In this document: positions 374 to 63,761 of the stretch, in pieces | Numbering within the stretch: the stretch's first letter is position 1 | Layout of the letters: each line of letters starts with the position of its first letter | From: a virus | IMG/VR virus record: IMGVR_UViG_3300038620_000134 | Coordinates: 1-64,000 of that record | Length of the DNA: 64,000 nt | Reading direction: 5' to 3' (one strand) | Program-made: the position numbers and the translations under genes | The notes under the pieces: model-generated | Databases searched by the model: none | The model's input: only the letters and a program-made list of their open reading frames with translations | What the model was told of the DNA's origin: nothing

Positions 374-1909
374 TTAGAACAGCTTTATTTTACCATTAAC
401 ATCAGAAACAGCTTTAACATCCTCTTCTGTAAACTGTTTATCATTTTTAAAACAAAAGAAAGCACCCCCAACTTCTTCAGGTGCACCTTTCAGGGATGTT
501 AAATTATTACGAGAACACATAAATCTACCCCCAACTTCTTCAGGTGCACCTTCCAGGGATGTTAATTTATTATCAGAACAATTAAAATCACCCCCAACTT
601 CTTCAGGTGCACCTTCAAGAGTTGTTAATTTATTAACAGGGCAAACAAAATCACCCCCAACTTCTTCAGGAGCACCTTCAAGGGATGTTAAATTATTATT
701 AGTGCAAACAAAATCACCCCCAACTTCTTCAGGAGCACCTTCAAGGGATGTTAATTCGTTATCATAACACATAAAACTACCCTCAACATTGTCAGGAGCA
801 CCTTCAAGGGATGTTAAATTATTATTAGAACACATAAAATTACCCCCAACATTGTCAGGAGCACCTTCAAGGGATGTTAAATTATTATTAGAACACATAA
901 AATCACCACTGACGTGTCCAAATTTATATTTTTTTATAACTTTTTTATAGTCCTCTGACTTATAATTAAAATTTACATCCCCATTAACATTAACAATGTT
1001 ATTTTTTGATATATTATAATTACCAGAAACAACATTTGAAAAAATATAATCTGTTTCATTAAAAATTGTTTTGTTATCATACGAATAAAGCCCATCGATA
1101 ACATCTCTAGTGAAAAATATAGCTTGTTCTGGTTCATTAGGATGAATGAACCAATCCTCTCCTTCATCAATAAATCCTTCAACACCCAAATCAAGATAAA
1201 TCTTTGTTTTAAGCTGTGGTCCGTTACTTTTCCCTAAAGCCAATAAAGCCAAATCAACATAATTATTTACAAAAAACCAAAGTATTTTTGTATACGAATC
1301 ATTATTTAAAGCATCTTCTAATTTTTCCCACTTTTCTTCAGGAACTTTTGAAATAACGTTAATATCGCTCACCAAACTATCTAAGTTAAAAAAAACTTCT
1401 GAAATATTTTCATTTATATAATTATACAATAATTCAAAAGCATCATCTGGAAGATTGTTTTTTAGTTTTTTGTTTGATTTACATACATCATAGAATTCTT
1501 TAATATGGTTAAAAGCATTTGAATTTTCAGTTAAAATTTTATTTTGTTTAATTTTATTTTGTTTAATTTTAAATAAATGAATTGTATTAGATTTATCAGG
1601 AACAAAAGGATAAACTTTTTCCAAACGTTTTTTTATTTCATCATTACTACTCTTATGTGTTAAATTTTTAGTTATTAAATCATAATCTTTTTTACTTAAC
1701 GGATATGCATAATATCCAGCAGGAGTATTATAACCAGTAAAAGGATTTATAAATGTTACAGTATCTTCTTCTCGAAATGAAATAAACCAGTTATCCAAAC
1801 TATCATTTCCAATAGTGTTTTTAATAAATTCAATAAAGTTTATTTTTCTATTAATTTCTGGATTTCTTCGTTTCTCTGTTAAATAGTCTTGAAAGGACTT
1901 TATTCGCAT
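374..1909 (-). CDS. LRR protein (7 full 21-aa repeats + cap); N-terminal domain shared with 10230..11186
   Basis: GGxFxCxxNxLTSLEGAPEEV repeats with a 63-bp period. N-terminus MRIKSFQDYLTE. WFISFR/TFINPFT/TPAGYY/IHPNEP motifs. Confidence 0.9.
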   Translation of the reverse strand: MRIKSFQDYLTEKRRNPEINRKINFIEFIKNTIGNDSLDNWFISFREEDTVTFINPFTGYNTPAGYYAYPLSKKDYDLITKNLTHKSSNDEIKKRLEKVYPFVPDKSNTIHLFKIKQNKIKQNKILTENSNAFNHIKEFYDVCKSNKKLKNNLPDDAFELLYNYINENISEVFFNLDSLVSDINVISKVPEEKWEKLEDALNNDSYTKILWFFVNNYVDLALLALGKSNGPQLKTKIYLDLGVEGFIDEGEDWFIHPNEPEQAIFFTRDVIDGLYSYDNKTIFNETDYIFSNVVSGNYNISKNNIVNVNGDVNFNYKSEDYKKVIKKYKFGHVSGDFMCSNNNLTSLEGAPDNVGGNFMCSNNNLTSLEGAPDNVEGSFMCYDNELTSLEGAPEEVGGDFVCTNNNLTSLEGAPEEVGGDFVCPVNKLTTLEGAPEEVGGDFNCSDNKLTSLEGAPEEVGGRFMCSRNNLTSLKGAPEEVGGAFFCFKNDKQFTEEDVKAVSDVNGKIKLF

Positions 1910-1925
1910 TATTATTTTTTTTTTA

Positions 1926-3176
1926 TTAAACTATTATTTTACCTTTAACATCAGAAACAGCTTTAACATCTTCTTTTGTAAAATCTTCTTCATTAAATCT
2001 ACAATTAAAGTTGCTTCCAACATATTCAGGAGCACCTTTAAGGGATGTTAGTTTATTAAACATACATTCAAAATATCCACCAACATATTCGGGTGCACCC
2101 TCAAGGGATTTTAAATTATTATATGTACAAAGAAAATGACCAACAACTGTTTTAGGTACACCTTTTAAATTTGATAAATTATTATCAGAGCAATCAAATT
2201 TACCACTAACATACCCAAATTTATAATTTTCTATAATTGTTTTATAAATTTGCGGTTGGCTTAATAAATCTACATGACCATCAACATGAATTGTACTTCC
2301 ATCTATCTTAAAAGTTCCTTCAACAACATCATTTAGTATAGCTTCAACTGAGGCATTTGGACTATATGCACACTTTCCAGCTCTATATAACCCTTTAAGT
2401 TGTTTGTATTTAGTTTTACTTAGTTTTTGATTCTTTTCAAGCCATGCATCAATGGTTTCTTTAAAACCTTTAACTGTTTCTCCTTTAATTTCTTCATTTC
2501 TAAACAGTGCAATTTCTTCACTATCTTCACTGACGTATGGTTTAATCAAAACCCGTGCAACGGGGTTATTAATGTTCAAGTCATCTTTTTTAATAAGATA
2601 TGCAATTATAGTTCCCTTTTTAACATCTTCCATTATATAAAATGTTTTACTTCCAGTATCTAAGTCCATACAACTAGTCCAACCTCTATCCGTGCTCATC
2701 CCCGCAATATCGTATGGATGCCGTGAAATAACTACTAAATAATCATCTTGTTTTCTTTGAGTTGATTTTTTAGAAAGTTCTTTTTCGTAATCACTTTTTA
2801 ATTTTTCAACATTTATATCACTCTTTTTAAGACCACTATCTTTCATTAAAACTTTTACAATACTGGTTGTTCTTTTATCCGAAACTGCTATATTCTTATT
2901 AAAATCTTCAACTTCATAATTTGTATATTCTAAAGCTTTATTTATTCTATCTCTAACATCTTTACTTATCTTTTGTTTCTCTTCCTCAGATTCTTTAAGT
3001 TCAAGATATAATCTATATTTCGGTTTTCCATTTTCTTTCTTTCCAAAAATATCTTGATAGAATTTTTCACCACCTGCTTCTTTCCATGTTTTAATATATG
3101 GTTTTGCTTGACTTGGATGAAGTGCTTCATCAATGGAACTCGAATTAATGTATTCTTGAAAAGATTTTAAGCGCAT
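1926..3176 (-). CDS. LRR protein paralog (3 repeats + cap)
   Basis: N-terminal domain (SRHPYDIAGMSTDRGWTSCMDL) nearly identical to 7686, 56053 and 61938. Confidence 0.9.
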   Translation of the reverse strand: MRLKSFQEYINSSSIDEALHPSQAKPYIKTWKEAGGEKFYQDIFGKKENGKPKYRLYLELKESEEEKQKISKDVRDRINKALEYTNYEVEDFNKNIAVSDKRTTSIVKVLMKDSGLKKSDINVEKLKSDYEKELSKKSTQRKQDDYLVVISRHPYDIAGMSTDRGWTSCMDLDTGSKTFYIMEDVKKGTIIAYLIKKDDLNINNPVARVLIKPYVSEDSEEIALFRNEEIKGETVKGFKETIDAWLEKNQKLSKTKYKQLKGLYRAGKCAYSPNASVEAILNDVVEGTFKIDGSTIHVDGHVDLLSQPQIYKTIIENYKFGYVSGKFDCSDNNLSNLKGVPKTVVGHFLCTYNNLKSLEGAPEYVGGYFECMFNKLTSLKGAPEYVGSNFNCRFNEEDFTKEDVKAVSDVKGKIIV

Positions 3177-4061: not shown

Positions 4062-4089
4062 TATTTATTCAAATAAACAATAATAAATA
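4062..4089. promoter_or_regulatory. Back-to-back T4-like late promoters (AATAAATA on each strand)
   Basis: TATTTATT at 4062-4069 and AATAAATA at 4082-4089 between divergent genes; the T4 late consensus is TATAAATA. Confidence 0.55.
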
Positions 4090-7685: not shown

Positions 7686-9449
7686 TTAAACTATTATTTC
7701 ACCTTTAACATCAGAAACCGCTTTAACATCTTCTTTTGTAAATTTTTCTTCGTTAAGTCTACACTCAAAATTACCCCCAACTTCTTCAGGAGCACCTTCA
7801 AGGGAAATTAAATTGTTACGGTTACAATCAAAATCACCCCCAACTTCTTCAGGAGCACCTTCAAGGGAAGTTAAATTATTATTAGAACAATCAAAGTTAC
7901 CTCCAACTTCTTCAGGTGCACCTTCCAGGGATGTTAATTTATTAGCAGTACATTCAAAAGAATTTCCAATGTACTCAGGTACACCTTTAAGGGATGTTAA
8001 TTTGTTTTCAGTACAATCAAAAGAACCTTCAACGTGCTTAGGTGCACCTTTAAGAGATTTTAAGTTGTTTTCAGTACAATCAAAATCACCCCCAACTTCT
8101 TCAGGAGCACCTTCAAGGGAAGTTAAATTATTATTAGAACAATCAAAGTTACCTCCAACTTCTTCAGGTGCACCTTCCAGGGATGTTAATTTATTATAGT
8201 AACAATTAAATCCACCCCTAATTTTTTTAGGCGCGCCTTCAAGAGTTTTTAGTTTATTATATTTACAAATAAAATCACGTCCAACTTTTTCAGGTGCACC
8301 CTCAAGCGATGTTAAATTGTTTTCATCACAATAAAAATCACCCCCAACTTCTTTAGGTGCACCTTCCAGGGATGTTAATTTATTAAAAAAACAATAAAAA
8401 TCACCCCCAACTTCTTCAGGAGCACCTTTCAAGGATGTTAATTTATTATCACGACATTCAAAGTTGCCACTAACATATCCAAACTTATAGTTTTTTGTAA
8501 TTTTTTTGTAAAATATGGGTTCATCTTCTAATTTCAAATTACCCTTAATATTAATTGTGTTTCCATCTATTTCAAAAGTTCCTTCAACAAAATCATTTAG
8601 TATAGCTTCAACTGAAGCGTTTAGATTATATTCACATCTTCCCTCGTCATATAACCCTTTAAGTTGTTTGTATTTAGTTTTATTTAGTTTTTGATTCTTT
8701 TCAAGCCATGCATCAATGGTTTCTTTGAAACCTTTAACTGGTTCTCCTTTAACTTCATCTACTTCTTTATCTCTAAATAAAGCAATTTCTTCACCGTTTT
8801 CACTGACGTATGGTTTAATCAAAACCCGTGCAACAGGATTATTAATATTCAAGTCATCTTTTTTAATAAGATATGCAATTATAGTTCCCTTTTTAACATC
8901 TTCCATTATATGAAATGTTTGACCTCCAGTATCTAAGTCCATACAACTAGTCCAGCCTCTATTCGTGCTCATTCCTGCAATATCATAAGGGTGTCTTGAA
9001 ATCACTACAAGATAGTTATCTTGATTCCTTTGAGTTGATTTCTTATTAAGTTCTTTTTCGTAATCACTTTTTAACTTTTGAACATTTATATCACTTTTTT
9101 TAAGACCACTATCTTTCACTAAAACTTTTACAATACTGGTTGTTCTTTTATCCGAAACTGCTAGGTTTTGGTTAAAATTTTCAACTTCATAGTTTGTATA
9201 TTCTAAGGCTTTATTAATTCTATCTCTAACATCTTTGCTTATCTTTTGTTTTTGTTCTTCAGACTCTTCGAGTTCTAAGTAAAGTCTATATTTGGGTTTC
9301 CCATTTTCTTTCTTTCCAAAAATATCTTGATAGAATTTTTCACCACCTGCTTCTTTCCATGTTTTAATATATGGTTTTGCTTGACTTGGATGAAGTGCTT
9401 CATCAATGGAAGTCGAATTAATGTATTCTTGAAAAGATTTTAAGCGCAT
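7686..9449 (-). CDS. LRR protein paralog (11 repeats + cap)
   Basis: Same N-terminal domain; 11 GAP-type repeats counted. Confidence 0.9.
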   Translation of the reverse strand: MRLKSFQEYINSTSIDEALHPSQAKPYIKTWKEAGGEKFYQDIFGKKENGKPKYRLYLELEESEEQKQKISKDVRDRINKALEYTNYEVENFNQNLAVSDKRTTSIVKVLVKDSGLKKSDINVQKLKSDYEKELNKKSTQRNQDNYLVVISRHPYDIAGMSTNRGWTSCMDLDTGGQTFHIMEDVKKGTIIAYLIKKDDLNINNPVARVLIKPYVSENGEEIALFRDKEVDEVKGEPVKGFKETIDAWLEKNQKLNKTKYKQLKGLYDEGRCEYNLNASVEAILNDFVEGTFEIDGNTINIKGNLKLEDEPIFYKKITKNYKFGYVSGNFECRDNKLTSLKGAPEEVGGDFYCFFNKLTSLEGAPKEVGGDFYCDENNLTSLEGAPEKVGRDFICKYNKLKTLEGAPKKIRGGFNCYYNKLTSLEGAPEEVGGNFDCSNNNLTSLEGAPEEVGGDFDCTENNLKSLKGAPKHVEGSFDCTENKLTSLKGVPEYIGNSFECTANKLTSLEGAPEEVGGNFDCSNNNLTSLEGAPEEVGGDFDCNRNNLISLEGAPEEVGGNFECRLNEEKFTKEDVKAVSDVKGEIIV

Positions 9450-23625: not shown

Positions 23626-23837
23626 CTAAAATCAAGTTTTACATGAATTTAATAAACAAATTAAAAGCATTTTTTAACGGTAAAAAAACTGAAAAATCAG
23701 TTAAATTAAAATCAGCAGCTTTATTTGACCATCTAGGTGTTAAACAACTAAATAAACCCGCTGTGCTTTCTGAAATATTTAATGAAAAGCCTATTGGGCA
23801 TGAAAAATCTAATAATAGTTTACCAATAGGTTTTTAA
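23613..23837 (+). CDS. Small hypothetical protein
   Basis: Probable start is the internal ATG (MNLINKLKAFF). Confidence 0.5.
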   Translation: MEILTKIKFYMNLINKLKAFFNGKKTEKSVKLKSAALFDHLGVKQLNKPAVLSEIFNEKPIGHEKSNNSLPIGF

Positions 23838-23880
23838 AACATAATAAGTAATGAATCTTCATGTATTAGATGCTTATTGC

Positions 23881-23968
23881 AGGGGGATGGCAGAGCGGTC
23901 GATTGCACCGGTCTTGAAAACCGGCAGCCAGCTACGCTGGTTCGGGGGTTCGAATCCCTCTCCCCCTG
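23881..23968 (+). tRNA. tRNA-Ser(TGA)
   Basis: AGGGGGA/TCCCCCT acceptor stem, CCGGT-CTTGAAA-ACCGG anticodon arm, long variable arm, GTTCGAATC. Confidence 0.93.
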
Positions 23969-24001
23969 CTTATGGTTTTTAACTAAAAATTAAAGTTTTG
24001 C

Positions 24002-24032
24002 TTGACACCTTCAAAAAGATTTACTAGCTTTA
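24002..24032 (+). promoter_or_regulatory. Early promoter TTGACA-N17-TAGCTTTA
   Basis: Same architecture as seven other sites; probably drives 24067 and possibly tnpB plus the array. Confidence 0.65.
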
Positions 24033-24066
24033 CACCATTCCCGAAATTATTAAACTATTATAAGTT

Positions 24067-24687
24067 ATGACTAACACAACTAAATTTCCAATCGAAGAGC
24101 TTTACGCTGAGCCGGAAAAGTTTTTACTAGCAAGTGAAAATTACGATTTAGGTTACCCTGAGCTTTACTATTTAGCATATGGTAGCCTAATGAAGTGGCA
24201 TTCTTGTGAGGCTCATTTGGTCTTGGTGAAGTTAAACTCAAATAAATACGGGCTTGGAGAGTCTGATTTAGAAGAATTTGAGCTTCGCCTTAAAATGGTG
24301 GCTAGTCTTTATCAGAACTGGCAAAATGAGCTGCAAGATTATTGGCAGTTATGTGACGAGTTCGGGGCCAGATATTCTATCACTCTAAGTGATGTTTATA
24401 AAAATTCGCTTCCGTTAGATGACGAAGGCGAACACGAAATTGAAAAAGTTAAAAACTTGAGTATTGAAGCTGCTAAAAGAGCTATTAAAGCAGAAAACTT
24501 AGCGGCGGTTAGATGGCTAAACCAGTTCTGGTTGGAGGCTGATATTTGGAAACAATTGAATTCTAAACCAGATTCTAAAAGAGTTGTACAAGCCCGCTGG
24601 TTAAAAGAGCTTTTCGTGTTTGATCTTGTTGGAGAAGATAAGTATCCTATGTGGAAAAAACCATTATCGTCTTTTTCTGAACTTTAA
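24067..24687 (+). CDS. Hypothetical protein directly upstream of tnpB
   Basis: 206-aa ORF, no recognised motif. Confidence 0.75.
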   Translation: MTNTTKFPIEELYAEPEKFLLASENYDLGYPELYYLAYGSLMKWHSCEAHLVLVKLNSNKYGLGESDLEEFELRLKMVASLYQNWQNELQDYWQLCDEFGARYSITLSDVYKNSLPLDDEGEHEIEKVKNLSIEAAKRAIKAENLAAVRWLNQFWLEADIWKQLNSKPDSKRVVQARWLKELFVFDLVGEDKYPMWKKPLSSFSEL

Positions 24688-24783
24688 TTGTTTTAATTAT
24701 GCCAGACTTTACCAAAAATACGAAAAAGAAAATCAAAAACTAAAAAAGAATTATAAAGCTTTTTTAGTGATTATTGGCCTATT

Positions 24784-25974
24784 ATGAGTGAGCAAAAGAC
24801 AATTTATAGAGCCTACAAGTTTCGATTAAAGCCTACTAAAGAGCAAGCTGAACTGCTCGACAAGACTTTCGGCTGCGTACGGCTTATTTACAACTATATG
24901 CTGGCCCAGCGTAAGGAGCATTATGAAAAGACTGGTAAATCTCCGAATGTCTACGAGCAATCACGCCAACTCCCAGAATTAAAACGGACTGAAGAATTTG
25001 GCTTTTTGAAGGAAATCGACTCAGCTGCGTTGGTTAGTGCTGTTTGGGATTTGGACGATGCTTATCAAAGATTTTTCAAAAAACATGGTAAGTATCCTAA
25101 GTTTAAGTCTAAGCACAAAAGTAAAAAAAGTTATAGTTCCTTTTCTAACACGTGCAAAATAAAAGGTGATCGTGTATATGCGCCTAAGTTTAAGAAACAG
25201 GGTATAAAAGTCATTGCACACCGTCTTATTGTGGGCAAGACTAAGACCATGACCTTCAGCAAGACACCTAGCGGGAAGTATTACGTTTCTATCTTTGTAG
25301 AAGAGCTATATACGCCCCCCGAACCTACGGGTGAAGCTGTTGGTATTGACCTAGGTATAAAAGAGCTTGCTGTTACGTCGGACGGTCAGCGTTACGAGAA
25401 CGCGAAATATTTGCAGAAATACGAGAAAAAACTGGCAAAAGCTCAAAAAGATTTAGCCCGTAAAAAGGGAAGTAAGAAATGTGAGGAAAAAAGCAATAGC
25501 TATATCCGTCAAAAACAGAAAGTCGCCAAGCTGCATGAGAAGGTAGCAAATTCGAGAAAAAACTTGCTGCACGAAATATCGCGGGAAGTCGTAGATAACT
25601 ATGATACGATAGCTTTGGAAGACTTGAATGTTCAAGGTATGAAGCAAAACCGGAAACTGGCCAAAAATATCAGCGACGTTAGTTGGGGTATGTTCAAAGA
25701 AATGCTAAAATACAAGGCAGAACGAGATAATAAACAGGTTGTGGCGATAAACCGATATTATCCAAGCAGTAAAACCTGCCATATTTGCGGGGATGAGAAG
25801 GAAAATCTAAGTCTCTCGGAGCGAGAGTGGACGTGTTCAAACGGCCACGTCTTAGACCGGGACCTGAATGCAGCAATAAATATATTAAATCAAGGATTAC
25901 TAAAATTAGAATCGGCAGCAGATGTCGATAACACGGGTGGAGTCGAAGTAAATCCTGTTTCGACAGGTGTTTGA
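24784..25974 (+). CDS. tnpB: TnpB (IS200/IS605 family) RNA-guided nuclease, catalytic triad intact
   Basis: YRAYKFRLKPT...FGCVR.IYN N-terminus; RuvC GIDLG, ALEDL, DRDLNAA; Zn finger CHIC...CSNGH; no tnpA nearby. Confidence 0.95.
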   Translation: MSEQKTIYRAYKFRLKPTKEQAELLDKTFGCVRLIYNYMLAQRKEHYEKTGKSPNVYEQSRQLPELKRTEEFGFLKEIDSAALVSAVWDLDDAYQRFFKKHGKYPKFKSKHKSKKSYSSFSNTCKIKGDRVYAPKFKKQGIKVIAHRLIVGKTKTMTFSKTPSGKYYVSIFVEELYTPPEPTGEAVGIDLGIKELAVTSDGQRYENAKYLQKYEKKLAKAQKDLARKKGSKKCEEKSNSYIRQKQKVAKLHEKVANSRKNLLHEISREVVDNYDTIALEDLNVQGMKQNRKLAKNISDVSWGMFKEMLKYKAERDNKQVVAINRYYPSSKTCHICGDEKENLSLSEREWTCSNGHVLDRDLNAAINILNQGLLKLESAADVDNTGGVEVNPVSTGV

Positions 25975-26020
25975 CTATGAAACTCGAAGCTCTTTCAAAT
26001 TTGAAGAGGGAATACCTGAC
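25912..26020 (+). ncRNA. omegaRNA (reRNA) scaffold overlapping the tnpB 3' end
   Basis: Stems TCGGCA/TGTCGA, CGGGT/ACTCG, AGTCGAA/TTTGACT and CCTGT-TTCG-ACAGG; terminal hairpin ending in TGAC; layout typical of IS605 right ends. Confidence 0.75.
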
Positions 26021-26043
26021 GCAAGGAAGCGAGGAAAAACGGG

Positions 26044-26303
26044 GTCGGAGTCCCTCTGCAATTTTGAGAGGGTATCTGACTCATAGATAATTTTTATTTT
26101 ATTTATTCAGTAAAAAGTCGGAGTCCCTCTGCAATTTTGAGAGGGTATCTGACTTAATCCGCTTATTTATGTTACGAACTGATCACAAAAAAAGGTGAGA
26201 GTCCCTCTAACACTTTGAAAGGGTATCTGACAAAGAAGTGCTTGAGGCTTGCGATGCCAGAATTAAGTGAGAGTCCCTCTAACACTTTGAAAGGGTATCT
26301 AAT
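26044..26303 (+). CRISPR. Mini CRISPR array: 4 x 37-bp repeats of two variants, spacers 36/41/35 bp
   Basis: GTCGGAGTCCCTCTGCAATTTTGAGAGGGTATCTGAC at 26044 and 26117; GTGAGAGTCCCTCTAACACTTTGAAAGGGTATCTGAC at 26195; the same variant ending TAAT at 26267; spacers unique. Confidence 0.88.
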
Positions 26304-26394
26304 GTTGACAAGGTAAAATGAAAAATTGAACATGAAAGAAGAAGAGCGCTATTAGAAATAATAAGATATATTAAACCACCAAAATAAAAGTACT

Positions 26395-27702
26395 ATGAAT
26401 ATGGAATACCCTGAAATTTATGCGTTTTCTGGAAAAATAGGTTCTGGAAAAAACTTCATGGCAGAAAAAATATTTCCTGAATATCTTTCTTCTAAGTCCA
26501 CACTTGTAATGGCATTTGCCGATGTATTTAAAGTTAGGGCTATCATTGAAGAGGGTTTAGATGAAAAGAAAGTATTTGAAGGGCCGAAAGATGAGGAAAC
26601 ACGTAGAATCCTTCAAATTTATGGCACTGAAGAAGGACGTGATAAAAAAGGAGAAGATATATGGTGCAGGTATTTGGAACAGTATATTAGATTATATTCT
26701 CAAAGAAAATCTATTGAAAGGGTTATTATAACAGATTTACGTTTTGAAAATGAAGCAAACTATTTAAGATCACTTGGAGCTTATTTGATTCGTGTAGAAG
26801 CACCTAATAGAAACAAAAGTGCACTTGAACAAGAAGCGTCCAATAAAGATGGCAACGTTCAATATGATGTTTATAATAAAATTTCGCAACACCCTAGTGA
26901 AACAGGTTTAGATAACTGGACAGATTGGGATTTAGTAATTCATAATGATTACGAAGATTCTCCTTATATCCACATTCGTGATTGGGTAGTAAATCACCGC
27001 GAATCTAAACATTTTTATTCGCATGTTGTTTTGATAGATCTTGATGATACGGTTGTTAGTTGTGGTCAAAAATATCATGAAAAAATTGACAAAGCATGTG
27101 ATCTTATTATCAAGGAAAAATCTAAAAATTTAACTAAAAAACAAGTAAAAAATACTTTTAAAGAGTTGGATTCTGATCGCCTTAATTCTTTTTATGATCG
27201 CTATCGGCTTTCTAAAAAATTAAAAGAGTTGGGAGTTTACTATAACGTATCAAGTTCTACACTAGAAAAATTATATGAGCTGGGTATTCAAGTTTATAAA
27301 GATACGTTTGAATATCTTTCAGGGTCTTATGAAGCACTAAATTTACTTTGGAAAAATTTGGATAATAATGATAAATTGATTATCTTTACACTTGGAAGAC
27401 GCGAAGATCAAGTTCGAAAAATACACGAACTTGGGCTTTTTGATATTGAGCATGAAATTGTTGAAACAAGAAAATCTGATGATGTTTACCAACAAGTTAA
27501 AAAAGATTATCCAGCTAATAAATATACTATGATTGGAGATTCTTTGGAAAATGATGTTTATCCTGCATTATCAGCAGACTTTAACAATATTTATTGGGTA
27601 AATAGTTATTCTAATCAAAGCTCTTTGTATGATTATTTTGTTGTGAAAGACTTACAAGAGGCTGTTTATCATTTTTTAAACCTAAAAGATAAAGTAACAT
27701 GA
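26395..27702 (+). CDS. Deoxynucleoside monophosphate kinase fused to a HAD hydrolase
   Basis: SGKIGSGK, FAD..K, R.ILQ.YGTE and ITDLRFENE; then IDLDDTV...MIGDSLENDV. Confidence 0.88.
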   Translation: MNMEYPEIYAFSGKIGSGKNFMAEKIFPEYLSSKSTLVMAFADVFKVRAIIEEGLDEKKVFEGPKDEETRRILQIYGTEEGRDKKGEDIWCRYLEQYIRLYSQRKSIERVIITDLRFENEANYLRSLGAYLIRVEAPNRNKSALEQEASNKDGNVQYDVYNKISQHPSETGLDNWTDWDLVIHNDYEDSPYIHIRDWVVNHRESKHFYSHVVLIDLDDTVVSCGQKYHEKIDKACDLIIKEKSKNLTKKQVKNTFKELDSDRLNSFYDRYRLSKKLKELGVYYNVSSSTLEKLYELGIQVYKDTFEYLSGSYEALNLLWKNLDNNDKLIIFTLGRREDQVRKIHELGLFDIEHEIVETRKSDDVYQQVKKDYPANKYTMIGDSLENDVYPALSADFNNIYWVNSYSNQSSLYDYFVVKDLQEAVYHFLNLKDKVT

Positions 27703-28511: not shown

Positions 28512-28925
28512 ATGATTATGATTTTTCGCGATTTTCAATTCTCCGACCCAGCGGATAATCTTTCCTTCGCTCACGCGGCGCTAGCACTACATCAAAGCGT
28601 ATCTATACTTTATGATTTCCATTTAATATGTGAAGAAAATCAAAACCTACTCAATCAAGTCAACCCCCAAATTATTGAAGAAAGCCTTGATTGGAGGTGG
28701 AATCAATTATTTGAGTTTGATTTCAGGGTGCGGGAATTTCTCCAAATCTCCCAGAATGAATTATACGAACTAACGGTACGAAGAAAAGGGTTTGATTTTT
28801 TGCTCAAACAAATCGAAAAAGAAACGTTAGAAATTTTTGAAAGGCAGCGTATTGAAGGTGATTATCACTTGGATTTACAAGGCACCGTTAAAAAGAAGAT
28901 GGCCGAGAATTGGCCATCTATTTGA
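28512..28925 (+). CDS. Hypothetical protein
   Basis: 137-aa ORF with caactATG start context. Confidence 0.7.
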   Translation: MIMIFRDFQFSDPADNLSFAHAALALHQSVSILYDFHLICEENQNLLNQVNPQIIEESLDWRWNQLFEFDFRVREFLQISQNELYELTVRRKGFDFLLKQIEKETLEIFERQRIEGDYHLDLQGTVKKKMAENWPSI

Positions 28926-56052: not shown

Positions 56053-57573
56053 ATGCGAATAAAATCTTTCCAAGAATACATTAATTCGACTTCCATTGAT
56101 GAAGCACTCCATCCAAGTCAAGCAAAACCATATATTAAAGCATGGAAAGAAGCTGGAGGTGAAAAATTTTATCGTGACATCTTTGGAAAGAAAGAAAATG
56201 GAAAACCCAAATATAGACTTTACTTGGAGCTTAAAGAATCCAAAGAGCAGAAACAAAAGATAAGCAAAGATGTTAGGGATAGAATCAATAAAGCTTTAGA
56301 ATATACAAATTATGAAGTTGAAGATTTTAATCAAAATTTAGCAATTTCAAAAGATGGTGAAAATACTAAAAAAGTAACAAGTGAACTTTCAAAAAATAAA
56401 AAATTAAAAAAACAAGATGAAATTAATATAGATAAACTCCTTCAAGATTACAGTGAGGAACTAAGTAAAAAGTCAACCCAAAGAGAACAAGACGATTATC
56501 TTGTAGTAATTTCACGGCATCCATACGATATTGCGGGGATGAGCACCGATAGAGGTTGGACTAGTTGTATGGACTTAGATACTGGAAGTCAAAAATTCTA
56601 TGTAATGGAAGATGTTAAAAAGGGAACAATTATAGCTTATTTAATTAAAAAAGATGACTTGAATATTAATAATCCTGTTGCACGGATTTTAATAAAACCT
56701 TATGTTAGTGGGGACGGTGAAGAAATTGCACTGTTTAGAGATAAAGAAGTAGATGAATTTAAAGGAGAACCAGTTAAGGGATTTAAAGAAACAATTGATG
56801 CTTGGCTAGAAAAGAATCAAAAGTTAAGTAAAACCAAGTATTATCAACTTCAAGGATTGTATAAAGATGGAAAGTGTGAATATAATCCAGATGCTCCAGT
56901 TAAAGCTATACTAAATGATTTTGTTAAAGGAACTTTTGAAGTAGATGGAAACACAATTAGTGTTAATGGGAATGTAAATTTACGTAGAAAACCTAAAGTT
57001 TTTAAAAAAATTACAAAAAACTATAAGTTTGGATATGTTAGTGGTAATTTTAATTGTTCTAATAATAATTTAACATCCCTTGAAGGTGCACCTGAAGAAG
57101 TTGGGGGTTATTTTATTTGTGAGTATAACAAATTAACATCCCTTGAAGGTGCCCCTGAAAAAGTTGGGGGTAGTTTTATGTGTTCTCGTAATGGATTAAC
57201 ATCCTTGGAAGGTGCACCTGAAGAAGTTGTAAGTGGTTTTATTTGTGATGATAATAATTTAACATCCCTTAAAGGTGCCCCTGAAAAAGTTGGGGGTAGT
57301 TTTATTTGTTATAGGAATGGTTTAACATCCCTTGAAGGTGCACCCGAAAAAGTTGGAGGTGAATTTGATTGTAGATTTAATCAATTAACATCCCTTGAAG
57401 GTGCACCTGAAAAAGTTGGAGGTGATTTTTATTGTAGATTTAATCAATTAACATCCCTTGAAGGTGCACCTGAAAAAGTTGGAGGTGATTTTTATTGTGG
57501 TAAGAATAAAAAAGATTTTACAAAAGAAGATGTTAAAGCTGTTTCTGATGTTGAAGGTGAAATAAAAGTTTAA
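56053..57573 (+). CDS. LRR protein paralog (7 repeats + cap)
   Basis: Same N-terminal domain with one divergent block (ISKDGENT...DYSEE). Confidence 0.9.
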   Translation: MRIKSFQEYINSTSIDEALHPSQAKPYIKAWKEAGGEKFYRDIFGKKENGKPKYRLYLELKESKEQKQKISKDVRDRINKALEYTNYEVEDFNQNLAISKDGENTKKVTSELSKNKKLKKQDEINIDKLLQDYSEELSKKSTQREQDDYLVVISRHPYDIAGMSTDRGWTSCMDLDTGSQKFYVMEDVKKGTIIAYLIKKDDLNINNPVARILIKPYVSGDGEEIALFRDKEVDEFKGEPVKGFKETIDAWLEKNQKLSKTKYYQLQGLYKDGKCEYNPDAPVKAILNDFVKGTFEVDGNTISVNGNVNLRRKPKVFKKITKNYKFGYVSGNFNCSNNNLTSLEGAPEEVGGYFICEYNKLTSLEGAPEKVGGSFMCSRNGLTSLEGAPEEVVSGFICDDNNLTSLKGAPEKVGGSFICYRNGLTSLEGAPEKVGGEFDCRFNQLTSLEGAPEKVGGDFYCRFNQLTSLEGAPEKVGGDFYCGKNKKDFTKEDVKAVSDVEGEIKV

Positions 57574-58220: not shown

Positions 58221-58294
58221 GCTTCAATTAAAAAATATTAAAAGTGTTACACTTTTTTAAGTAAAATAAATAAATAAATAAAAAAAATCAAAGC

Positions 58295-61200
58295 ATGGCA
58301 GAAGTCGCAACTAATTTTAACGTTAATCTTGATAGATACAAAGCATCTGGCGTATATTTAGCTGAAATAGATCGTTCAGCCGAACAACAACAAACTGCAA
58401 GCCCAACAACTCGTGTTGTAATTGGTTTTTCCCGTAAAGGCCCCGTTATGACACCTGTTTATTTGGAACGCAAAGAAACAGCACGTGATGTTTTTGGTGA
58501 AATTGATGAATCACTTGAAAGAAAAGGGTCATTTTTTCACAGAACTATTGATACTTGCCTGAATGAAGGACCTGTTTTTGCAATTAACATGATTCCATTT
58601 GTTAATGAAGTTGATGACTTAGGCAATCCAACTGCCGATGCTGATGTTGCTCCATATAGGTCTTTTTCAACTGATGTTACTGGTGATAACGGACGCGGTG
58701 AATGGGACACACCCACACCATCTCCAGATGTTTTTCCATTCAATCATCCTCGGTTTTCGGGTTACAATCTAAGACTTTATACAAGTTACTATAACAAAGA
58801 ACGTTTTTGGTTTCCAAGTGTAGATAATCTTTTAGCAACTCGCGTTGATGAAGATAAAGTTACAAATCTAAATGGTAGAGTAATTGGTGGAAAAATTCTT
58901 AACTTTGTTAATCTGGGCAAAACACCTATAACTGTTTTTGTAAGAAAAGCACCATCAAATAAAACTGATGGTTTTAGATTAACTGCTCGTGAATGGTATG
59001 AAGATAACGAAGATATTCCACCTTTTGTTAAAGAGTCTGATTATATATCAGATTACTTTTTAGAAGTAATATTAGTAAAAGGTAATTTTGGAAAGTCTTC
59101 ATATGAAGATTTAAGTAATGATCAGTTTTTAAATCCCTATTTTACAGAAAATGGAATAATTGCTGATAAGTTTGATGAACTACTTGATAGCAATTTAATT
59201 CCTGTAATTTCTCGATTTGTTGGAACCATTATTCCAAACTTCCGAGATAAGCAAGATATTGACTGGTTTATAGAAGATATAATTAACCGCCAATTTGCAA
59301 GAACTGGATTATTTTGTGCTGTTGACACAAATGAACTTGATCGCTATGAAACAGGGCAAAATGATTACTATGTAGATTTTGTAGGTCACAGACTTTTAGA
59401 CACAAGTAACTTTACTGAAAATAATCCAGACTGGAATGGTAACATTGACTTCTTAAGCTACAGAACTCCATTCAAAGAGAATCTTAAATATGAACAAGTT
59501 TCTTTGCCTATTAATATGGCCAATCCGAATTCTATTTTTGCTGGTGATGCTAATTTTACCAGTGATAGTGTTTCTGAATTAAGTAATGATGATTTAATTT
59601 CTAATAATGTTATTGAATTTTTAGAAAATCAAAATTCCGATAGCAGATTTTCATTTTACATTTATGATACAATAGATCAAGCAACAGGTAGTTATTACGC
59701 CAATTCACTTTTTGATAAGCTTAGTAATTTAACTCCTAATGATTCTTATATTGTTTTAGATATTGTTTTAGATGACAATAATGTAAATACACCACCTGTA
59801 ACAACTAAGCTTTACACTCAAGTTAAAAAGCTACTTCAACAAAATGTTGGAAATCAAACTGCCATTAAAGTTGAAGTTGAAAACTTGACTGATGTTAGTG
59901 GAAGCACTAACATGGAACCATATACAAATATAAGTTTAGAAAGTGGTGCCTTTACCCATCTGGTTTTTGAAAGAGATGGTTTTAATGCTGGTATTGGATC
60001 ATCTCCCACCTTCTTATATGCGAATAAAAATTCAAAATTATATCAAGATTGGAAAAATGGTGTTATTGCCGATGGTGATAAAGTGTTCCATGATATTGGC
60101 TCCACCAATGATACATATTTTGATGAATTTTACACCATTGAGTTTGAACAAACAAAAGACCCAAACTTTAAGGATCTTGTTTTGAAAGTTAACTTCTTTA
60201 ACCCGAATGGAAGTTCCTTTAACATTTCTAATCTTATTTTCCAAGCTGGTGAAAACTATGTTAAAAATTCAAATAATCCTGATGCAACAAGTCCAGCAGC
60301 TTTAACACCAAATCAAGCTGGTTACTTAAATGTTGTTTCTAATAGTGGAAGTCTTAATACTTATGTTGATTATCAAGCATTTCCCGATACCAGTGTTAAA
60401 AATCGAGTGTTAATACCTGATATACCAGCATGGAGAGATGATGCACGACCTGGTAACTTTATTCGGGCTAAGGATCGTAATGATAATCCCATCCTTGCCC
60501 GTATTACTAGAGTTCGTGGTGGTTATGAATACAATGGAATGAAATGGTTAAATGTAGAAAGTGTTGCAAGAATTGAACCATTTGAAGTTTTTGGAACACC
60601 CGAAACTACACCACAGGGATATACAATAAAAGGAACTGTAGAAATTTGGCGCCCTATTGAAAATAGTATCAAGTATATTGATGGTACTTATTTGAATGGA
60701 CTTCAACTAAATGATAATCACATACCAAAACCGAATGAAAGTTATGTTAGAGAATTTTATAAGCTGTTAGAAGATACGAATCTTAAAGAAGCTCTTTCAG
60801 ATAAAAATCAAATTACATGGAGGTATGTAGTAGATACATTTAACCAAGGACTTGATGAAATGTCTGGCGGTAAACAATATCTTACACGTCTTGCTAAAAG
60901 CCGTTGGAAAGCATTGGCATTTGTTAATGCTCCATCCATTCAAGAATTTATTGATAGTACTGACCCAATTTTTACTGAACTGCCAACGCCTAGAAGCCCA
61001 CGCCCAACGCTAAAAACTGAATACATAGCAACGGGTGGTAACTTAGATCAAAATCCAAACAGGATTTATTCGTTGCCAGATTTTGATAATGGTGCGAGTC
61101 ATTCTGGTTTCTTTATTCCAAATATTATAATTCGAGATGGTAACAAAACAGTTTCTGTTCCACCTGCTGCATACATTTCAAATCTTTATGTAAGAAAGTT

Positions 61201-61744
61201 CAAAAATGGTAATCCATTTCAAGCAATTGGTGGTAATAGAAAGGGTAGAATTACTGGTGCTAACATATCTGGATTAGAGTATGACTTTACCAAATCAGAT
61301 AGGGCCAATATAGAACCCTTTGGACTAAATCCAATGGTTAAACGACCAGATGGGTCTATTGTTGTAATGGGTGAAAGAACAGCGTATCAACGCGTTAATT
61401 CTCAACTAAACGGATTGCATGTTCGGGATGTTCTTATTTCAATTGAAATTCAAATTGAGAATATATTGGAAACTTATCTTTTTGAACCCAATGATGATGC
61501 AACAAGAAACGCAATTGAAAATGAAATTAGTTCATATCTTGAAACTGTTTTTGTAAATGATGGCATTCGACAAAATTATGAGGTGAAAATGGATTCTTCA
61601 AACAATGGGCCGGATGTTATTTCAGAAAACTTTGGCATTGTTGATGTTAAAGTTGAACCCGTTGGTGCTATTTACAAATATCTTAACAGGGTTTCTATTT
61701 TACCAAGTGGTGGACTAAATTCATCTGGATTTCAACCCGCTTAA
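58295..61744 (+). CDS. Contractile tail sheath protein (T4 gp18-like) with large insertions
   Basis: SGVYLAEIDRS, GFSRKGPV..P, VPPAAY, G.RKG.I, GLNP, GERT, LHVRDVL and LFEPND..TR. Confidence 0.93.
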   Translation: MAEVATNFNVNLDRYKASGVYLAEIDRSAEQQQTASPTTRVVIGFSRKGPVMTPVYLERKETARDVFGEIDESLERKGSFFHRTIDTCLNEGPVFAINMIPFVNEVDDLGNPTADADVAPYRSFSTDVTGDNGRGEWDTPTPSPDVFPFNHPRFSGYNLRLYTSYYNKERFWFPSVDNLLATRVDEDKVTNLNGRVIGGKILNFVNLGKTPITVFVRKAPSNKTDGFRLTAREWYEDNEDIPPFVKESDYISDYFLEVILVKGNFGKSSYEDLSNDQFLNPYFTENGIIADKFDELLDSNLIPVISRFVGTIIPNFRDKQDIDWFIEDIINRQFARTGLFCAVDTNELDRYETGQNDYYVDFVGHRLLDTSNFTENNPDWNGNIDFLSYRTPFKENLKYEQVSLPINMANPNSIFAGDANFTSDSVSELSNDDLISNNVIEFLENQNSDSRFSFYIYDTIDQATGSYYANSLFDKLSNLTPNDSYIVLDIVLDDNNVNTPPVTTKLYTQVKKLLQQNVGNQTAIKVEVENLTDVSGSTNMEPYTNISLESGAFTHLVFERDGFNAGIGSSPTFLYANKNSKLYQDWKNGVIADGDKVFHDIGSTNDTYFDEFYTIEFEQTKDPNFKDLVLKVNFFNPNGSSFNISNLIFQAGENYVKNSNNPDATSPAALTPNQAGYLNVVSNSGSLNTYVDYQAFPDTSVKNRVLIPDIPAWRDDARPGNFIRAKDRNDNPILARITRVRGGYEYNGMKWLNVESVARIEPFEVFGTPETTPQGYTIKGTVEIWRPIENSIKYIDGTYLNGLQLNDNHIPKPNESYVREFYKLLEDTNLKEALSDKNQITWRYVVDTFNQGLDEMSGGKQYLTRLAKSRWKALAFVNAPSIQEFIDSTDPIFTELPTPRSPRPTLKTEYIATGGNLDQNPNRIYSLPDFDNGASHSGFFIPNIIIRDGNKTVSVPPAAYISNLYVRKFKNGNPFQAIGGNRKGRITGANISGLEYDFTKSDRANIEPFGLNPMVKRPDGSIVVMGERTAYQRVNSQLNGLHVRDVLISIEIQIENILETYLFEPNDDATRNAIENEISSYLETVFVNDGIRQNYEVKMDSSNNGPDVISENFGIVDVKVEPVGAIYKYLNRVSILPSGGLNSSGFQPA

Positions 61745-61814: not shown

Positions 61815-61919
61815 TCAGAAAGTATTAACTGTAATTTTAATTGTATTAACAATAAAAAAAAAGAATTTACAGAAGAAGTTAAGGATGTTATAAATGTTGA
61901 AGGAGAAATAGGGGTTTAA
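61815..61919 (+). pseudogene. Remnant of an LRR-gene terminal repeat and cap
   Basis: Reads SESINCNFNCINNKKKEFTEEVKDVINVEGEIGV*, versus PEKVGGDFYCGKNKKDFTKEDVKAVSDVEGEIKV*; TATAAATA at 61802; no ATG. Confidence 0.7.
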
Positions 61920-61937
61920 TAAATAAAAAAAATAATA

Positions 61938-63761
61938 ATGCGAATAAAATCTTTCCAAGAATACATTAATTCGAGTTCCATTGATGAAGCACTCCATCCA
62001 AGTCAAGCTAAATCTTATATTAAAGCATGGAAAGAAGCTGGAGGTGAAAAATTTTATCGTGACATCTTTGGAAAGAAAGAAAATGGAAAACCCAAATATA
62101 GACTTTACTTAGAACTCGAAGAGTCTGAAGAACAAAAACAAAAGATAAGTAAAGATGTTAGAGATAGAATCAATAAAGCTTTAGAATATACAAACTATGA
62201 AGTTGAAAATTTTAATAAGAATATAGCGGTTTCGGATAAAAGAACAACCAGTATTATAAAAGTTTTAATGAAAGATAGTGGTCTTAAAAAGAGTGATATA
62301 AATGTTCAAAAGTTAAAAAGTGATTACGAAAAAGAACTTAATAAGAAATCAACTCAGAGAAAACAAGATAACTATCTTGTAGTGATTTCGCGTCATCCAT
62401 ACGATATTGCTGGAATGAGCACGGATAGAGGTTGGACTAGTTGTATGGACTTAGATACTGGAGGTCAAACATTTCATATAATGGAAGATGTTAAAAAGGG
62501 AACTATAATTGCATATCTTATTAAAAAAGATGACTTGAATATAAACAACCCTGTTGCACGGGTTTTAATAAAACCTTATGTTAGTGAAGATAGTGAAGAA
62601 ATTGCTTTATTTAGAGATAATTATAAAGAAATTAAAGGAGAACCAGTAAAGGGATTTAAAGAAACAATTGATGCTTGGCTAGAAAAGAATCAAAAGTTGA
62701 GTAAAAGTAAGTACAAACAACTTAAAGGACTATATGACGAGGGAAGATGTGCTTATAATCCAGATGCTTCAATTGAAGCTATATTAAATGATTTTGTTAA
62801 AGGAACTTTTGAAGTAGATGGAAACACAATTAGTGTTAATGGGGATGTAAATTTACGTAGAAAACTTGAAGTTTTTAAAAAAATTACAAAAAACTATAAG
62901 TTTGGATATGTTAGTGGTGATTTTTACTGTTCTAATAACGACTTAACTTCTCTTGAGGGTGCTCCTGAAGAAGTAGGTGGTAATTTTAATTGTGAGTATA
63001 ACAAATTAACATCCCTTGAAGGTGCACCTGGAGAAGTTGGGGGTGATTTTGATTGTAAATTTAATAATTTACGAACACTTGAAGGTTCACCTGAAAAAGT
63101 TGGGAGTAATTTTAGTTGTATATTTAATAAATTAACAACTCTTGAAGGTGCACCTGGAGAAGTTGGGGGTGATTTTGATTGTTCCCATAACAATTTAGCA
63201 TCCCTTGAAGATGCACCTAAAAAGGTTGGGGGTGAATTTAATTGTCTTGGTAATAGTTTAACATCCCTTAAAGGTGCCCCTGAAAAAGTTGGGGGTAAAT
63301 TTAACTGTAGTGGAAACCAATTAACATCACTCGAAGGTGCTCCTGAAAAGGTTGGGGATAATTTTATTTGTAGATCTAATAAATTAACTTCCCTTGAGGG
63401 TGCTCCTGAAAAGGTTGGGGGTAGTTTTATTTGTTATAGGAATGATTTAACATCCCTTAAGGGCACACCTAAAAAGGTTGGGGATGATTTTTATTGTATG
63501 AATAATAAATTAACATCCCTTGATGGAGGACCTGAAGAAGTTGGGGGTCGTTTTGATTGCTCTCATAATAAATTAACTTCCCTTGATGGTGCTCCTAAAA
63601 AAATTGGAAGTGATTTTAGTTGTACGTTTAACAAATTAACATCTCTTCAAAGTGCACCCGAAAAAGTTGGAGGTGATTTTGATTGTAGATTTAATAGAGA
63701 AAATTTTACAAAAGAAGATGTAAAAGCTGTTTCTGATGTTGAAGGTGAAATAAAAGTTTAA
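61938..63761 (+). CDS. LRR protein paralog (12 repeats + cap)
   Basis: Same N-terminal domain; 12 repeats counted. Confidence 0.9.
   Translation: MRIKSFQEYINSSSIDEALHPSQAKSYIKAWKEAGGEKFYRDIFGKKENGKPKYRLYLELEESEEQKQKISKDVRDRINKALEYTNYEVENFNKNIAVSDKRTTSIIKVLMKDSGLKKSDINVQKLKSDYEKELNKKSTQRKQDNYLVVISRHPYDIAGMSTDRGWTSCMDLDTGGQTFHIMEDVKKGTIIAYLIKKDDLNINNPVARVLIKPYVSEDSEEIALFRDNYKEIKGEPVKGFKETIDAWLEKNQKLSKSKYKQLKGLYDEGRCAYNPDASIEAILNDFVKGTFEVDGNTISVNGDVNLRRKLEVFKKITKNYKFGYVSGDFYCSNNDLTSLEGAPEEVGGNFNCEYNKLTSLEGAPGEVGGDFDCKFNNLRTLEGSPEKVGSNFSCIFNKLTTLEGAPGEVGGDFDCSHNNLASLEDAPKKVGGEFNCLGNSLTSLKGAPEKVGGKFNCSGNQLTSLEGAPEKVGDNFICRSNKLTSLEGAPEKVGGSFICYRNDLTSLKGTPKKVGDDFYCMNNKLTSLDGGPEEVGGRFDCSHNKLTSLDGAPKKIGSDFSCTFNKLTSLQSAPEKVGGDFDCRFNRENFTKEDVKAVSDVEGEIKV

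Follow-up and report, generated by a model that had tools for sequence, protein, structure and literature searches.

The phage contig IMGVR_UViG_3300038620_000134 (IMG/VR; 81,724 bp, CheckV completeness 31%) carries on its plus strand a gene for a predicted TnpB-like RNA-guided nuclease, followed by a compact array of four 37-nt repeats and three spacers that starts 70 nt past the tnpB stop codon. The first 64 kb of the contig are referred to here as the window; all searches for matches of the phage to itself covered the entire contig, which by the CheckV estimate is about 31% of the genome. The first spacer looks like a late-gene start from a T4-like phage; the third probably derives, judging from its sequence, from a seg-type homing-endonuclease gene. 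Because spacers 1 and 3 look phage-derived and non-self, a related phage is the best reading of the array: the guides may be aimed at a T4-like phage that is related but non-identical to the carrier, a view that we hold tentatively and weigh below. The elements of the locus are as follows.

24784-25974, plus strand: predicted TnpB-like RNA-guided nuclease gene, 396 aa (Pfam and phmmer)
25984-26020, plus strand: R0, end of the presumed omegaRNA scaffold, repeat-like but degenerate (from its resemblance to the repeats)
26021-26043, plus strand: g0, 23-nt stretch from R0 to repeat 1, possible native guide (about 57% G+C)
26044-26080, plus strand: repeat 1, variant A, 37 nt, identical to repeat 2
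26081-26116, plus strand: spacer 1, 36 nt, 11% G+C; reverse complement with AATAAATA, a 15-nt leader, and ATGA
26117-26153, plus strand: repeat 2, variant A, 37 nt, identical to repeat 1
26154-26194, plus strand: spacer 2, 41 nt; reverse complement holds CATAAATA only
26195-26231, plus strand: repeat 3, variant B, 37 nt (from comparison of the repeats)
26232-26266, plus strand: spacer 3, 35 nt; KEVLEACDARI in frame 1, similar to the conserved motif of seg-type GIY-YIG proteins
26267-26303, plus strand: repeat 4, terminal, variant B, 37 nt; 3′ end TAAT versus TGAC in the others

Spacer 1 resembles the start of a late gene

The gene starts of the phage itself provide the reference for spacer 1. 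Crude gene calling, which accepted non-overlapping open reading frames (ORFs) of at least 60 aa beginning with ATG, yielded 87 genes. In an unbiased count of upstream 8-mers, AATAAATA was the commonest, being present no more than 50 nt upstream of 23 of the 87 genes, and 26 of its 54 occurrences on both strands lie 0 to 45 nt before a called ATG in the correct orientation. The gap between motif and ATG is usually 8 to 14 nt and most often 12 nt. Three of these sites precede the genes that the original prediction had named as sharing the layout of spacer 1, and the motif is indeed present at each of them.

4082-4089, plus strand: AATAAATA motif, 8 nt before the ATG at 4098
58273-58280, plus strand: AATAAATA motif, 14 nt before the tail sheath ATG at 58295
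61918-61925, plus strand: AATAAATA motif, 12 nt before the ATG at 61938

Genes bearing AATAAATA cluster at 1 to 14 kb and at 41 to 81 kb; the tail sheath gene (58295-61744) is among them, and most of the others have no known function. The block from 14 to 41 kb is mostly without the motif and holds genes for replication and nucleotide metabolism (clamp loader, methylase, kinase), which are presumably early. The exact T4 octamer, TATAAATA, is not enriched (8 + 11, or 19, occurrences observed versus 19 + 17, or about 36, expected) and stands upstream of only 3 of the 87 genes. The motif of this phage is a NATAAATA variant, and it is in the form of AATAAATA that a T4-type late promoter octamer is found on the contig. 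As described in passages of two papers (PMC1524935, PMC2984593), the late promoter octamer spans −13 to −6, with a T4-type transcription start about 6 nt downstream; conservation of its first base (T at −13) is poor among T4-like phages, and NATAAATA is the form of the late promoter in cyanophage S-PM2. Since the first base varies in this way and the NATAAATA form has been described, "T4-like late promoter" appears to be a fair name for AATAAATA, with the caveats that no gp55 was found on the contig and that a gap of 8 to 14 nt to the ATG would leave leaders only a few nucleotides long.

Spacer 1 is TCATAGATAATTTTTATTTTATTTATTCAGTAAAAA, and its reverse complement reads TTTTTACTG-AATAAATA-AAATAAAAATTATCT-ATG-A, where AAATAAAAATTATCT is a 15-nt A-rich leader, just as originally claimed. 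When spacer 1 was shuffled 200,000 times, the composite of AATAAATA, 6 to 20 nt of any sequence, and ATG arose in 0.67% of the shuffles; among contig 36-mers, 317 of 81,323 (0.39%) contain it, and the P value of the composite in spacer 1 is approximately 0.004 to 0.007. In other seg-bearing phage loci totaling 1.08 Mb, it is present in 735 of the 1,080,554 36-mers (0.07%). The AATAAATA variant is thus 5 to 6 times denser in this phage than in the other loci. A 27-nt position weight matrix (PWM) built from the 23 sites assigns spacer 1 a score of 15.2 bits, a value attained by 35 of the 163,396 contig positions, the 23 training sites being expected among these. The best local alignment of spacer 1 to the 87 upstream regions has a score of 36, reached by 1 of 300 shuffles. 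In this alignment, spacer 1 agrees over 18 of 18 contiguous nucleotides with contig positions 80727-80744, at the start of a DUF5856 gene (80337-80726, minus strand); that start is not a target, because spacer 1 differs from it by five additional bases in the leader and by unrelated sequence farther upstream.

Sequences similar to spacer 1 also mark gene starts in other viruses. By eye, five of the eight best matches in other seg-bearing viral contigs consist of an A-rich leader and an ATG; the best match elsewhere (26/36, in L049) lies behind TATAAATA, and a 21/24 match in the complete 174-kb record G001 is a gene start too. The resemblance of spacer 1 to a late-gene start is real and more than compositional. 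The original prediction that spacers 1 and 2 are antisense to late promoters therefore holds for spacer 1, on the evidence of the PWM and the shuffles, and fails for spacer 2 (see below).

Further regularities were seen at gene starts. In L091, a complete record of 174 kb, a 19-nt sequence is shared by two sites (at approximately 1501 and 1929) some 430 nt apart; the first of these is a gene start, and the shared 19 nt comprise leader and ATG. Such a pair points to a recurrence of leader cassettes in T4-like genomes and suggests that near-matches to spacer 1 are easily met. On the contig under study, a second promoter-like class, TTGACA with TATCTTAG about 17 nt later, stands upstream of presumably early genes (starts at 28512 and 34440). 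ATGCGA or ATGCGC starts are shared by the genes at 374-1909 (minus strand), 1926-3176 (minus), 7686-9449 (minus), 56053-57573 (plus), and 61938-63761 (plus), four of which carry the AATAAATA motif upstream. The three that were scanned (7686-9449, 56053-57573, and 61938-63761) match phrog_7816 and phrog_21719, and the five look like a paralogous family, possibly of duplicated structural genes.

Spacer 3 probably derives from a seg-type homing-endonuclease gene

The first 12 nt of spacer 3 are identical to contig positions 77343-77354, which belong, in frame and at codon 58, to the one GIY-YIG gene that the contig contains.

77172-77720, plus strand (outside the window): SegE-like GIY-YIG homing-endonuclease gene (PF19835, 28.5 bits; cut-off, 25)

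Over longer spans, the agreement is 17/20 and 21/35. In the same frame, spacer 3 encodes KEVLEACDARI and the phage's own SegE-like protein has KEVLYDCKGEE; as seen by the guide, the phage's own seg allele presents a perfect 12-nt seed and then three mismatches at guide positions 13 to 17. The pattern NF..E[VI]L is present in 64 of 120 seg homologues and KE[VI]LE.C in 3 of 120, and both are absent from all 120 TnpB homologues used as controls. Scored with a position-specific scoring matrix from 119 homologues (the phage's own protein being excluded), the spacer 3 peptide obtains 9.3 bits and the phage's own segment 10.0 bits; 5 of 20,000 shuffles and 6 of 11,506 contig 35-mers reach 9.3 bits. 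When spacer 3 is shuffled, an exact match of the first 12 nt to the contig arises in 1.3% of the shuffles. These similarities point to a gene of the seg-type family as the probable source of spacer 3; no closer source was found in 80 seg-bearing loci, 20 whole viral records, or a codon-degenerate search of IMG/VR.

As spacer 3 maps to the coding interior of a seg-like gene family, promoter targeting is not supported as the theme of the array. The suggestion that the guides are directed against late promoters of a related phage is thereby reduced: the related phage is still the best reading, and the promoter applies to one guide at most.

Spacer 2 matches a promoter at chance level

The reverse complement of spacer 2 contains CATAAATA. 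Its promoter resemblance is a coincidence at chance level, as the original prediction had itself cautioned when it noted that a TAAATA match could arise by chance, especially in this spacer. ATAAATA is present in 3.2% of contig 41-mers. The base before ATAAATA is A at all 23 real sites and C in spacer 2, the 10 nt that follow it (AGCGGATTAA) are not A-rich, and spacer 2 has no ATG within it. The PWM score of spacer 2 is −11.2 bits, a value equaled or exceeded at 8,302 positions. No relative of spacer 2 was found in any search.

The array follows a predicted TnpB nuclease gene

The protein encoded upstream of the array has the domain architecture of TnpB. Pfam models HTH_OrfB_IS605 (74.8 bits), OrfB_IS605 (95.1 bits), and Cas12f1-like_TNB (81.2 bits) match it, and phmmer aligns it over its full length to the ISDra2 TnpB chains 8h1j and 8bf8 (E = 3e-65). 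Residues D189 (GIDLG), E279 (ALEDL), and D360 (DRDLNAA) align with what we take to be the catalytic RuvC residues of ISDra2, with consistent chain offsets. The protein thus combines a helix-turn-helix domain, an OrfB_IS605 (RuvC) domain, a zinc-finger TNB domain, and the D/E/D residues, and by this alignment the RuvC D/E/D of the predicted nuclease is intact. The retention of these residues sets it apart from TldR proteins, which are defined by their loss.

The gene at 24784-25974 is the sole copy above the Pfam cut-off on the contig, which has neither a Y1 transposase (tnpA) nor Cas1. The arrangement expected of a TnpB element, a transposon with ends and a single guide in its flank, was not found; instead, several repeat-spacer units follow the gene. 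The layout is that of type V systems (V-U or TranC-like), with an array 3′ of a RuvC effector and repeats related to the 3′ end of the omegaRNA, as described in PMC10691335. The closest relatives of the protein are only 55 to 56% identical, and none is from IMG/VR; Parabacteroides phage PF672P2 has a 50%-identical TnpB without an array. The repeat pattern, when searched for in IMG/VR, was absent.

R0 begins 10 nt past the TGA stop of tnpB. Its 3′ end reads ..GAAGAGGGAATACCTGAC versus ..GAGAGGGTATCTGAC in the repeats, or, as also written, ..GGGAATACCTGAC versus ..GGGTATCTGAC. The period of the array is near-regular at 72 to 78 nt; the hairpin stem of repeat variant B contains a mismatch, and the terminal repeat is degenerate. 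The G+C content is 0.38 to 0.44 over 24.1 to 26.3 kb versus 0.25 to 0.30 in the flanking phage DNA, and that of g0 is likewise unlike the phage. A consensus scan of 23800-26500 for promoters and terminators gave results no better than those from shuffles.

The stretch of raised G+C also takes in an ORF of 206 aa (24067-24687) that has no Pfam or PHROG match and that may have arrived together with tnpB. A TTGACA lies directly 3′ of the last repeat (26304-26312), before a kinase/HAD fusion gene (26395-27702). A tRNA gene with a long variable arm is located at 23881-23968 on the plus strand (Rfam tRNA, 55.7 bits); its anticodon loop, CUUGAAA by eye, is Ser(UGA)-like, and its very high depth in the metagenome runs is drawn from other organisms. 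The Rfam scan returned tRNA only.

The phage and its sampling in tidal-flat metagenomes

Besides the tail sheath and SegE-like genes, the contig encodes a gp44-like clamp loader and a UvsW-like helicase. The closest relative of the helicase is from LR756500.1, a 462-kb uncultured phage (34% identity), and the relatives ranked after it are from T4-like cyanophages.

Four tidal-flat metagenome runs (X1 to X4) contain the locus. The array is free of variants in contigs from three of the four, and positions 26052-26296 show zero differences in run X1. Neither an empty-site joint nor an array variant was found across the four runs, and no RNA run is among the sequencing runs listed as holding the locus. 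Run X1 contains a minority variant, at a depth of 4 of 15.4, with changes at 26015, 26031, and 26039: the C>T at 26015 turns the end of R0 into one like that of the array repeats (..ATCTGAC), and the other two changes fall in the 23-nt stretch after R0.

Proposed action of the guides

Under the related-phage reading, the source of spacer 1 would be a late-gene start of another T4-like phage, made up of a NATAAATA-type late promoter, an ATG, and a short A-rich leader between them. The array would be co-transcribed on the plus strand with the upstream TnpB-like gene, and each RNA would consist of the 3′ part of a repeat followed by a spacer. Because the repeats resemble the scaffold end on the same strand and TnpB and Cas12 systems have the guide after the repeat, the guides would be the spacers as read on the plus strand. 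TnpB would cleave double-stranded DNA in which a target-adjacent motif (TAM) adjoins a match to the first ∼20 nt of a guide. In guide 1, these ∼20 nt would span the ATG(A), the leader, and the presumed transcription start, with the octamer at positions 20 to 27; guide 3 would act likewise on a seg-like GIY-YIG homing-endonuclease gene. We infer the existence of the target phage, as well as transcription, RNA processing, the TAM, and cleavage.

Guide 1 is complementary to the sense strand, and hence antisense to the presumed mRNA; guide 3 is in the same sense as the seg mRNA. If transcription begins 6 nt past the octamer, as in T4, RNA could pair with no more than about 14 nt of guide 1. Because the two guides are of opposite sense, the RuvC residues are intact, and so little of guide 1 would lie in RNA, DNA targeting appears likelier than an antisense or repressor function. 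We propose that the phage itself would be spared because its nearest look-alikes differ from the guides in or just beyond the seed.

TTGAT, the TAM of ISDra2, was considered as the TAM and rejected. It lies beside the near-match to spacer 1 in G001 but accompanies only 2 of 228 such near-matches (background, 0.0025), and for spacer 3 it would require F-D codons, which are present in 0 of 120 seg homologues.

Protospacer searches and alternative explanations

The original prediction had noted no exact protospacer in the window, and this holds for the whole 81,724-bp contig. The contig has no match to the whole of spacer 1 with up to three mismatches; blastn-short with all guides found no protospacer on it; and it has no 12-, 16-, or 20-nt seed match to spacer 1, spacer 2, or g0, apart from one 12-nt match to g0 with one mismatch. 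Within this sequence, then, the array has no self-target. The guides found nothing in the whole record of LR756500.1, spacer 3 with free third codon positions found nothing in IMG/VR, and six-frame peptides of g0 and spacers 1 and 2 found nothing among the contig and 240 proteins.

A number of results weigh against a related phage as the target. No match longer than 24 nt with at most one mismatch in another virus, the level given in PMC7162821, was obtained in any of the collections searched. IMG/VR contains no exact 24-mer of spacer 1, 2, or 3, and the 185,579 species genomes of GTDB contain none of spacer 2 or 3. A blastn search with the whole array (E ≤ 10) against 50,697 phages of INPHARED and 72,556 plasmids of PLSDB gave only matches with E ≥ 0.3, all of them noise within the AT-rich core. 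The best match in the 80 seg-bearing IMG/VR loci (1.08 Mb) is 21/22 in a low-complexity core, and 20 whole viral records gave, at up to three mismatches, one match to spacer 1 versus one to the reversed control. Concerning spacer 3, the seg-type family was picked only after the match had been seen; some 12-mer of the spacer matches the contig in 20% of shuffles; and an identity of 21/35 is common, being found at 32 positions in the 80 loci, only 3 of which are homologous seg sites, when positions with at least one match among the first six 4-nt blocks of spacer 3 are counted. The composite seen in spacer 1 is not rare among AT-rich contig 36-mers, of which 144 of 2,956 (4.9%) contain it. The late sigma factor gp55, searched for with phrog_234 and phrog_12791, has no match on the 81.7-kb fragment, which represents about 31% of the genome, and 10 further small proteins, searched as a second batch against PHROGs, gave no late-transcription match either. 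Finally, the one exact 24-nt match to spacer 1 in the Joint Genome Institute (JGI) metagenomes, at positions 138-161 of L003 (JAEEGH010832760.1), covers the repeat-proximal end of the spacer and lies inside a Lys/Ile-rich ORF beside a BspA-like leucine-rich-repeat ORF.

L003 was rejected as a target. The match stops at 24 nt (2 of the next 12 nt agree, by eye), falls within a coding frame, and belongs to a very AT-rich contig unlike a phage in appearance. As 22 of the 24 bases are A or T, about one chance occurrence would be expected in such a collection by our rough, uncomputed estimate, and the match looks like chance.

That the promoter look of spacer 1 is itself coincidental, the spacer being merely very AT-rich, is quite unlikely. 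The frequency of the composite in AT-rich 36-mers would favor it, as would the L003 match within an unrelated coding region, the abundance of near-matches with two or three mismatches in 20 nt (228 with up to five mismatches in 1.2 Mb), and the fact that the feature was singled out after being seen. However, the AT-rich null is generous, because the AT-rich 36-mers of this phage are mostly promoter regions themselves, and base composition does not readily account for a PWM rank within the top 35 positions, an alignment score reached by 1 of 300 shuffles, 18 contiguous matches to the start of a real gene, or the rarity of the composite (0.07%) in other seg-bearing loci. An explanation by fossil flanks, in which each unit is a transposon right end with a former insertion flank and the units were stacked by duplication or recombination, is unlikely. 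Under it, the omegaRNA guides would have served restorative homing, spacer 1 would record an earlier insertion next to a late gene, and the array would be a history of insertions or a set of homing guides rather than a weapon against phages. This explanation would suit the resemblance of the repeats to the scaffold end just past tnpB, the lack of cas1 and of a Y1 transposase on the contig, the varying spacer lengths (36, 41, and 35 nt), and the occurrence of the two repeat variants in pairs. It also has precedent in passages that propose an origin of arrays by serial duplication of omegaRNA segments (PMC10691335) and that present TnpB as a homing endonuclease with the flank as its guide (PMC13565253). 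Yet spacer 1 would then start 4 nt into a reading frame (..ATGA|), and the reading is weakened because the insertion would have severed the promoter and ATG of a late gene from the gene body. The repeats, moreover, bound the spacers on both sides with a near-regular period, no empty-site joint or second copy appears in the four runs, and the contig has no second tnpB.

It is very unlikely that the array is a decayed one, acquired horizontally with spacers for a former host or phage community and now inactive, although the G+C contrast with the surrounding DNA, the distance to the nearest TnpB relatives and their absence from IMG/VR, the stem mismatch of variant B with the degenerate last repeat, and the failure to find targets would all agree with it. 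The ORF is intact and has its catalytic residues, contigs from three of the four tidal-flat runs carry the same array without differences, and spacer 1 contains the phage's own variant of the motif, whose greater density here argues for acquisition within the community of this lineage. The least probable explanation is self-regulation, the alternative put forward in the original prediction, whereby the guides would bind the phage's own late promoters, leaders, or mRNAs and time their expression in a TldR- or antisense-like manner. In its favor are the antisense orientation of spacer 1 to a late-type leader, the roughly 69% of the genome that lies outside the contig, and the phage-encoded RNA-guided repressors derived from TnpB that PMC10705468 and PMC13565253 describe. 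This alternative was nonetheless set aside: spacers 1 and 2 have no seed match at the 23 motif-bearing starts or elsewhere in the 81.7 kb, the RuvC residues are kept, unlike in TldR, and guide 3 is mRNA-sense whereas guide 1 is antisense and pairable with RNA over about 14 nt only.

Relation to known systems

The origin of arrays downstream of TnpB through duplication of omegaRNA segments is treated as an accepted route to type V systems in the relevant part of PMC10691335. Compared with ISDra2 TnpB and its omegaRNA, the system described here has the same domain architecture, full-length similarity, the RuvC triad, and an array where the omegaRNA lies; unlike TnpB in IS200/IS605 elements, it has no tnpA, no recognizable transposon ends, and several guides instead of one. 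In 9jfo and 9jfq, solved structures of TranC intermediates, only the C-terminal part of the TnpB-like protein finds a match.

The mini-arrays of archaeal viruses reportedly have no effector of their own and rely on the host's Cas proteins. Medvedeva et al. (2019, PMC6858448) interpret such virus-borne arrays as weapons in conflicts with closely related viruses. The present array is like them in being very short and located on a virus genome; it differs in that a nuclease gene adjoins it and in that the relatedness of the target is suggested by similarity at the level of motifs only. For huge phages, compact arrays without cas1 or cas2 have been reported, with discussion of intergenic and promoter targeting (Al-Shayeb et al. 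2020, PMC7162821). As described there, those arrays share with this one their location on a phage, the small number of repeats, the lack of cas1 and cas2, and an effector that keeps its catalytic residues. They do not share its TnpB-sized effector (396 aa) or its repeats resembling the omegaRNA end, and here no target of the grade used in that study was obtained.

TldR proteins are nuclease-dead, are often encoded on phages, and have a guide that exactly matches a host promoter, according to sections of PMC10705468 and PMC13565253. The likeness lies in a TnpB-derived protein on a phage with a guide complementary to a promoter region; the differences are the predicted intact RuvC (D189, E279, and D360) and the lack of a matching promoter in the sequence at hand. 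The free-standing Seg and Mob endonucleases of T-even phages act in intronless homing and marker exclusion (PMC13565253, in the section concerned). There, as proposed here, the nuclease of one phage acts on a co-infecting relative that differs by substitutions, but recognition is by protein, whereas here it is predicted to be by RNA. In the Lalka phages of Thermus, as outlined in part of a preprint (bioRxiv 10.64898/2026.04.20.719267), the array of Cas12r is expressed during infection and its spacers are directed against rival mobile elements, which has been demonstrated by experiment. Cas12r is similarly a phage-encoded type V-type effector with an array; it belongs to another effector family, and its targets, integrative elements, were found, whereas none was found here.

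Implications

That phage arrays are used against other phages, regulatory regions included, is a concept already published. In the present case, the resemblance of one spacer to a late-gene start is well supported, that of another is due to chance, and no target was found. A more specific form of the related-phage reading, which we consider doubtful, is that a phage-borne TnpB with copies of the omegaRNA end constitutes a programmable weapon of a T4-like jumbo phage, an RNA-guided counterpart of Seg/Mob that serves marker exclusion. The guides would then sit on alleles that differ between sibling phages, namely, a late-gene start and the seg-type gene of a rival. A co-infecting relative would be cut, and the diverged alleles of the carrier, such as its own seg gene with a 12-nt seed and mismatches beyond it, would be spared. 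If true, this would represent RNA-guided inter-phage exclusion in a T4-like lineage by a nuclease of the size of TnpB and not by a full Cas12. It would also link protein-guided Seg/Mob and RNA-guided TnpB selfish nucleases in one arena and would offer a natural case in which to see how a phage discriminates self from near-self.

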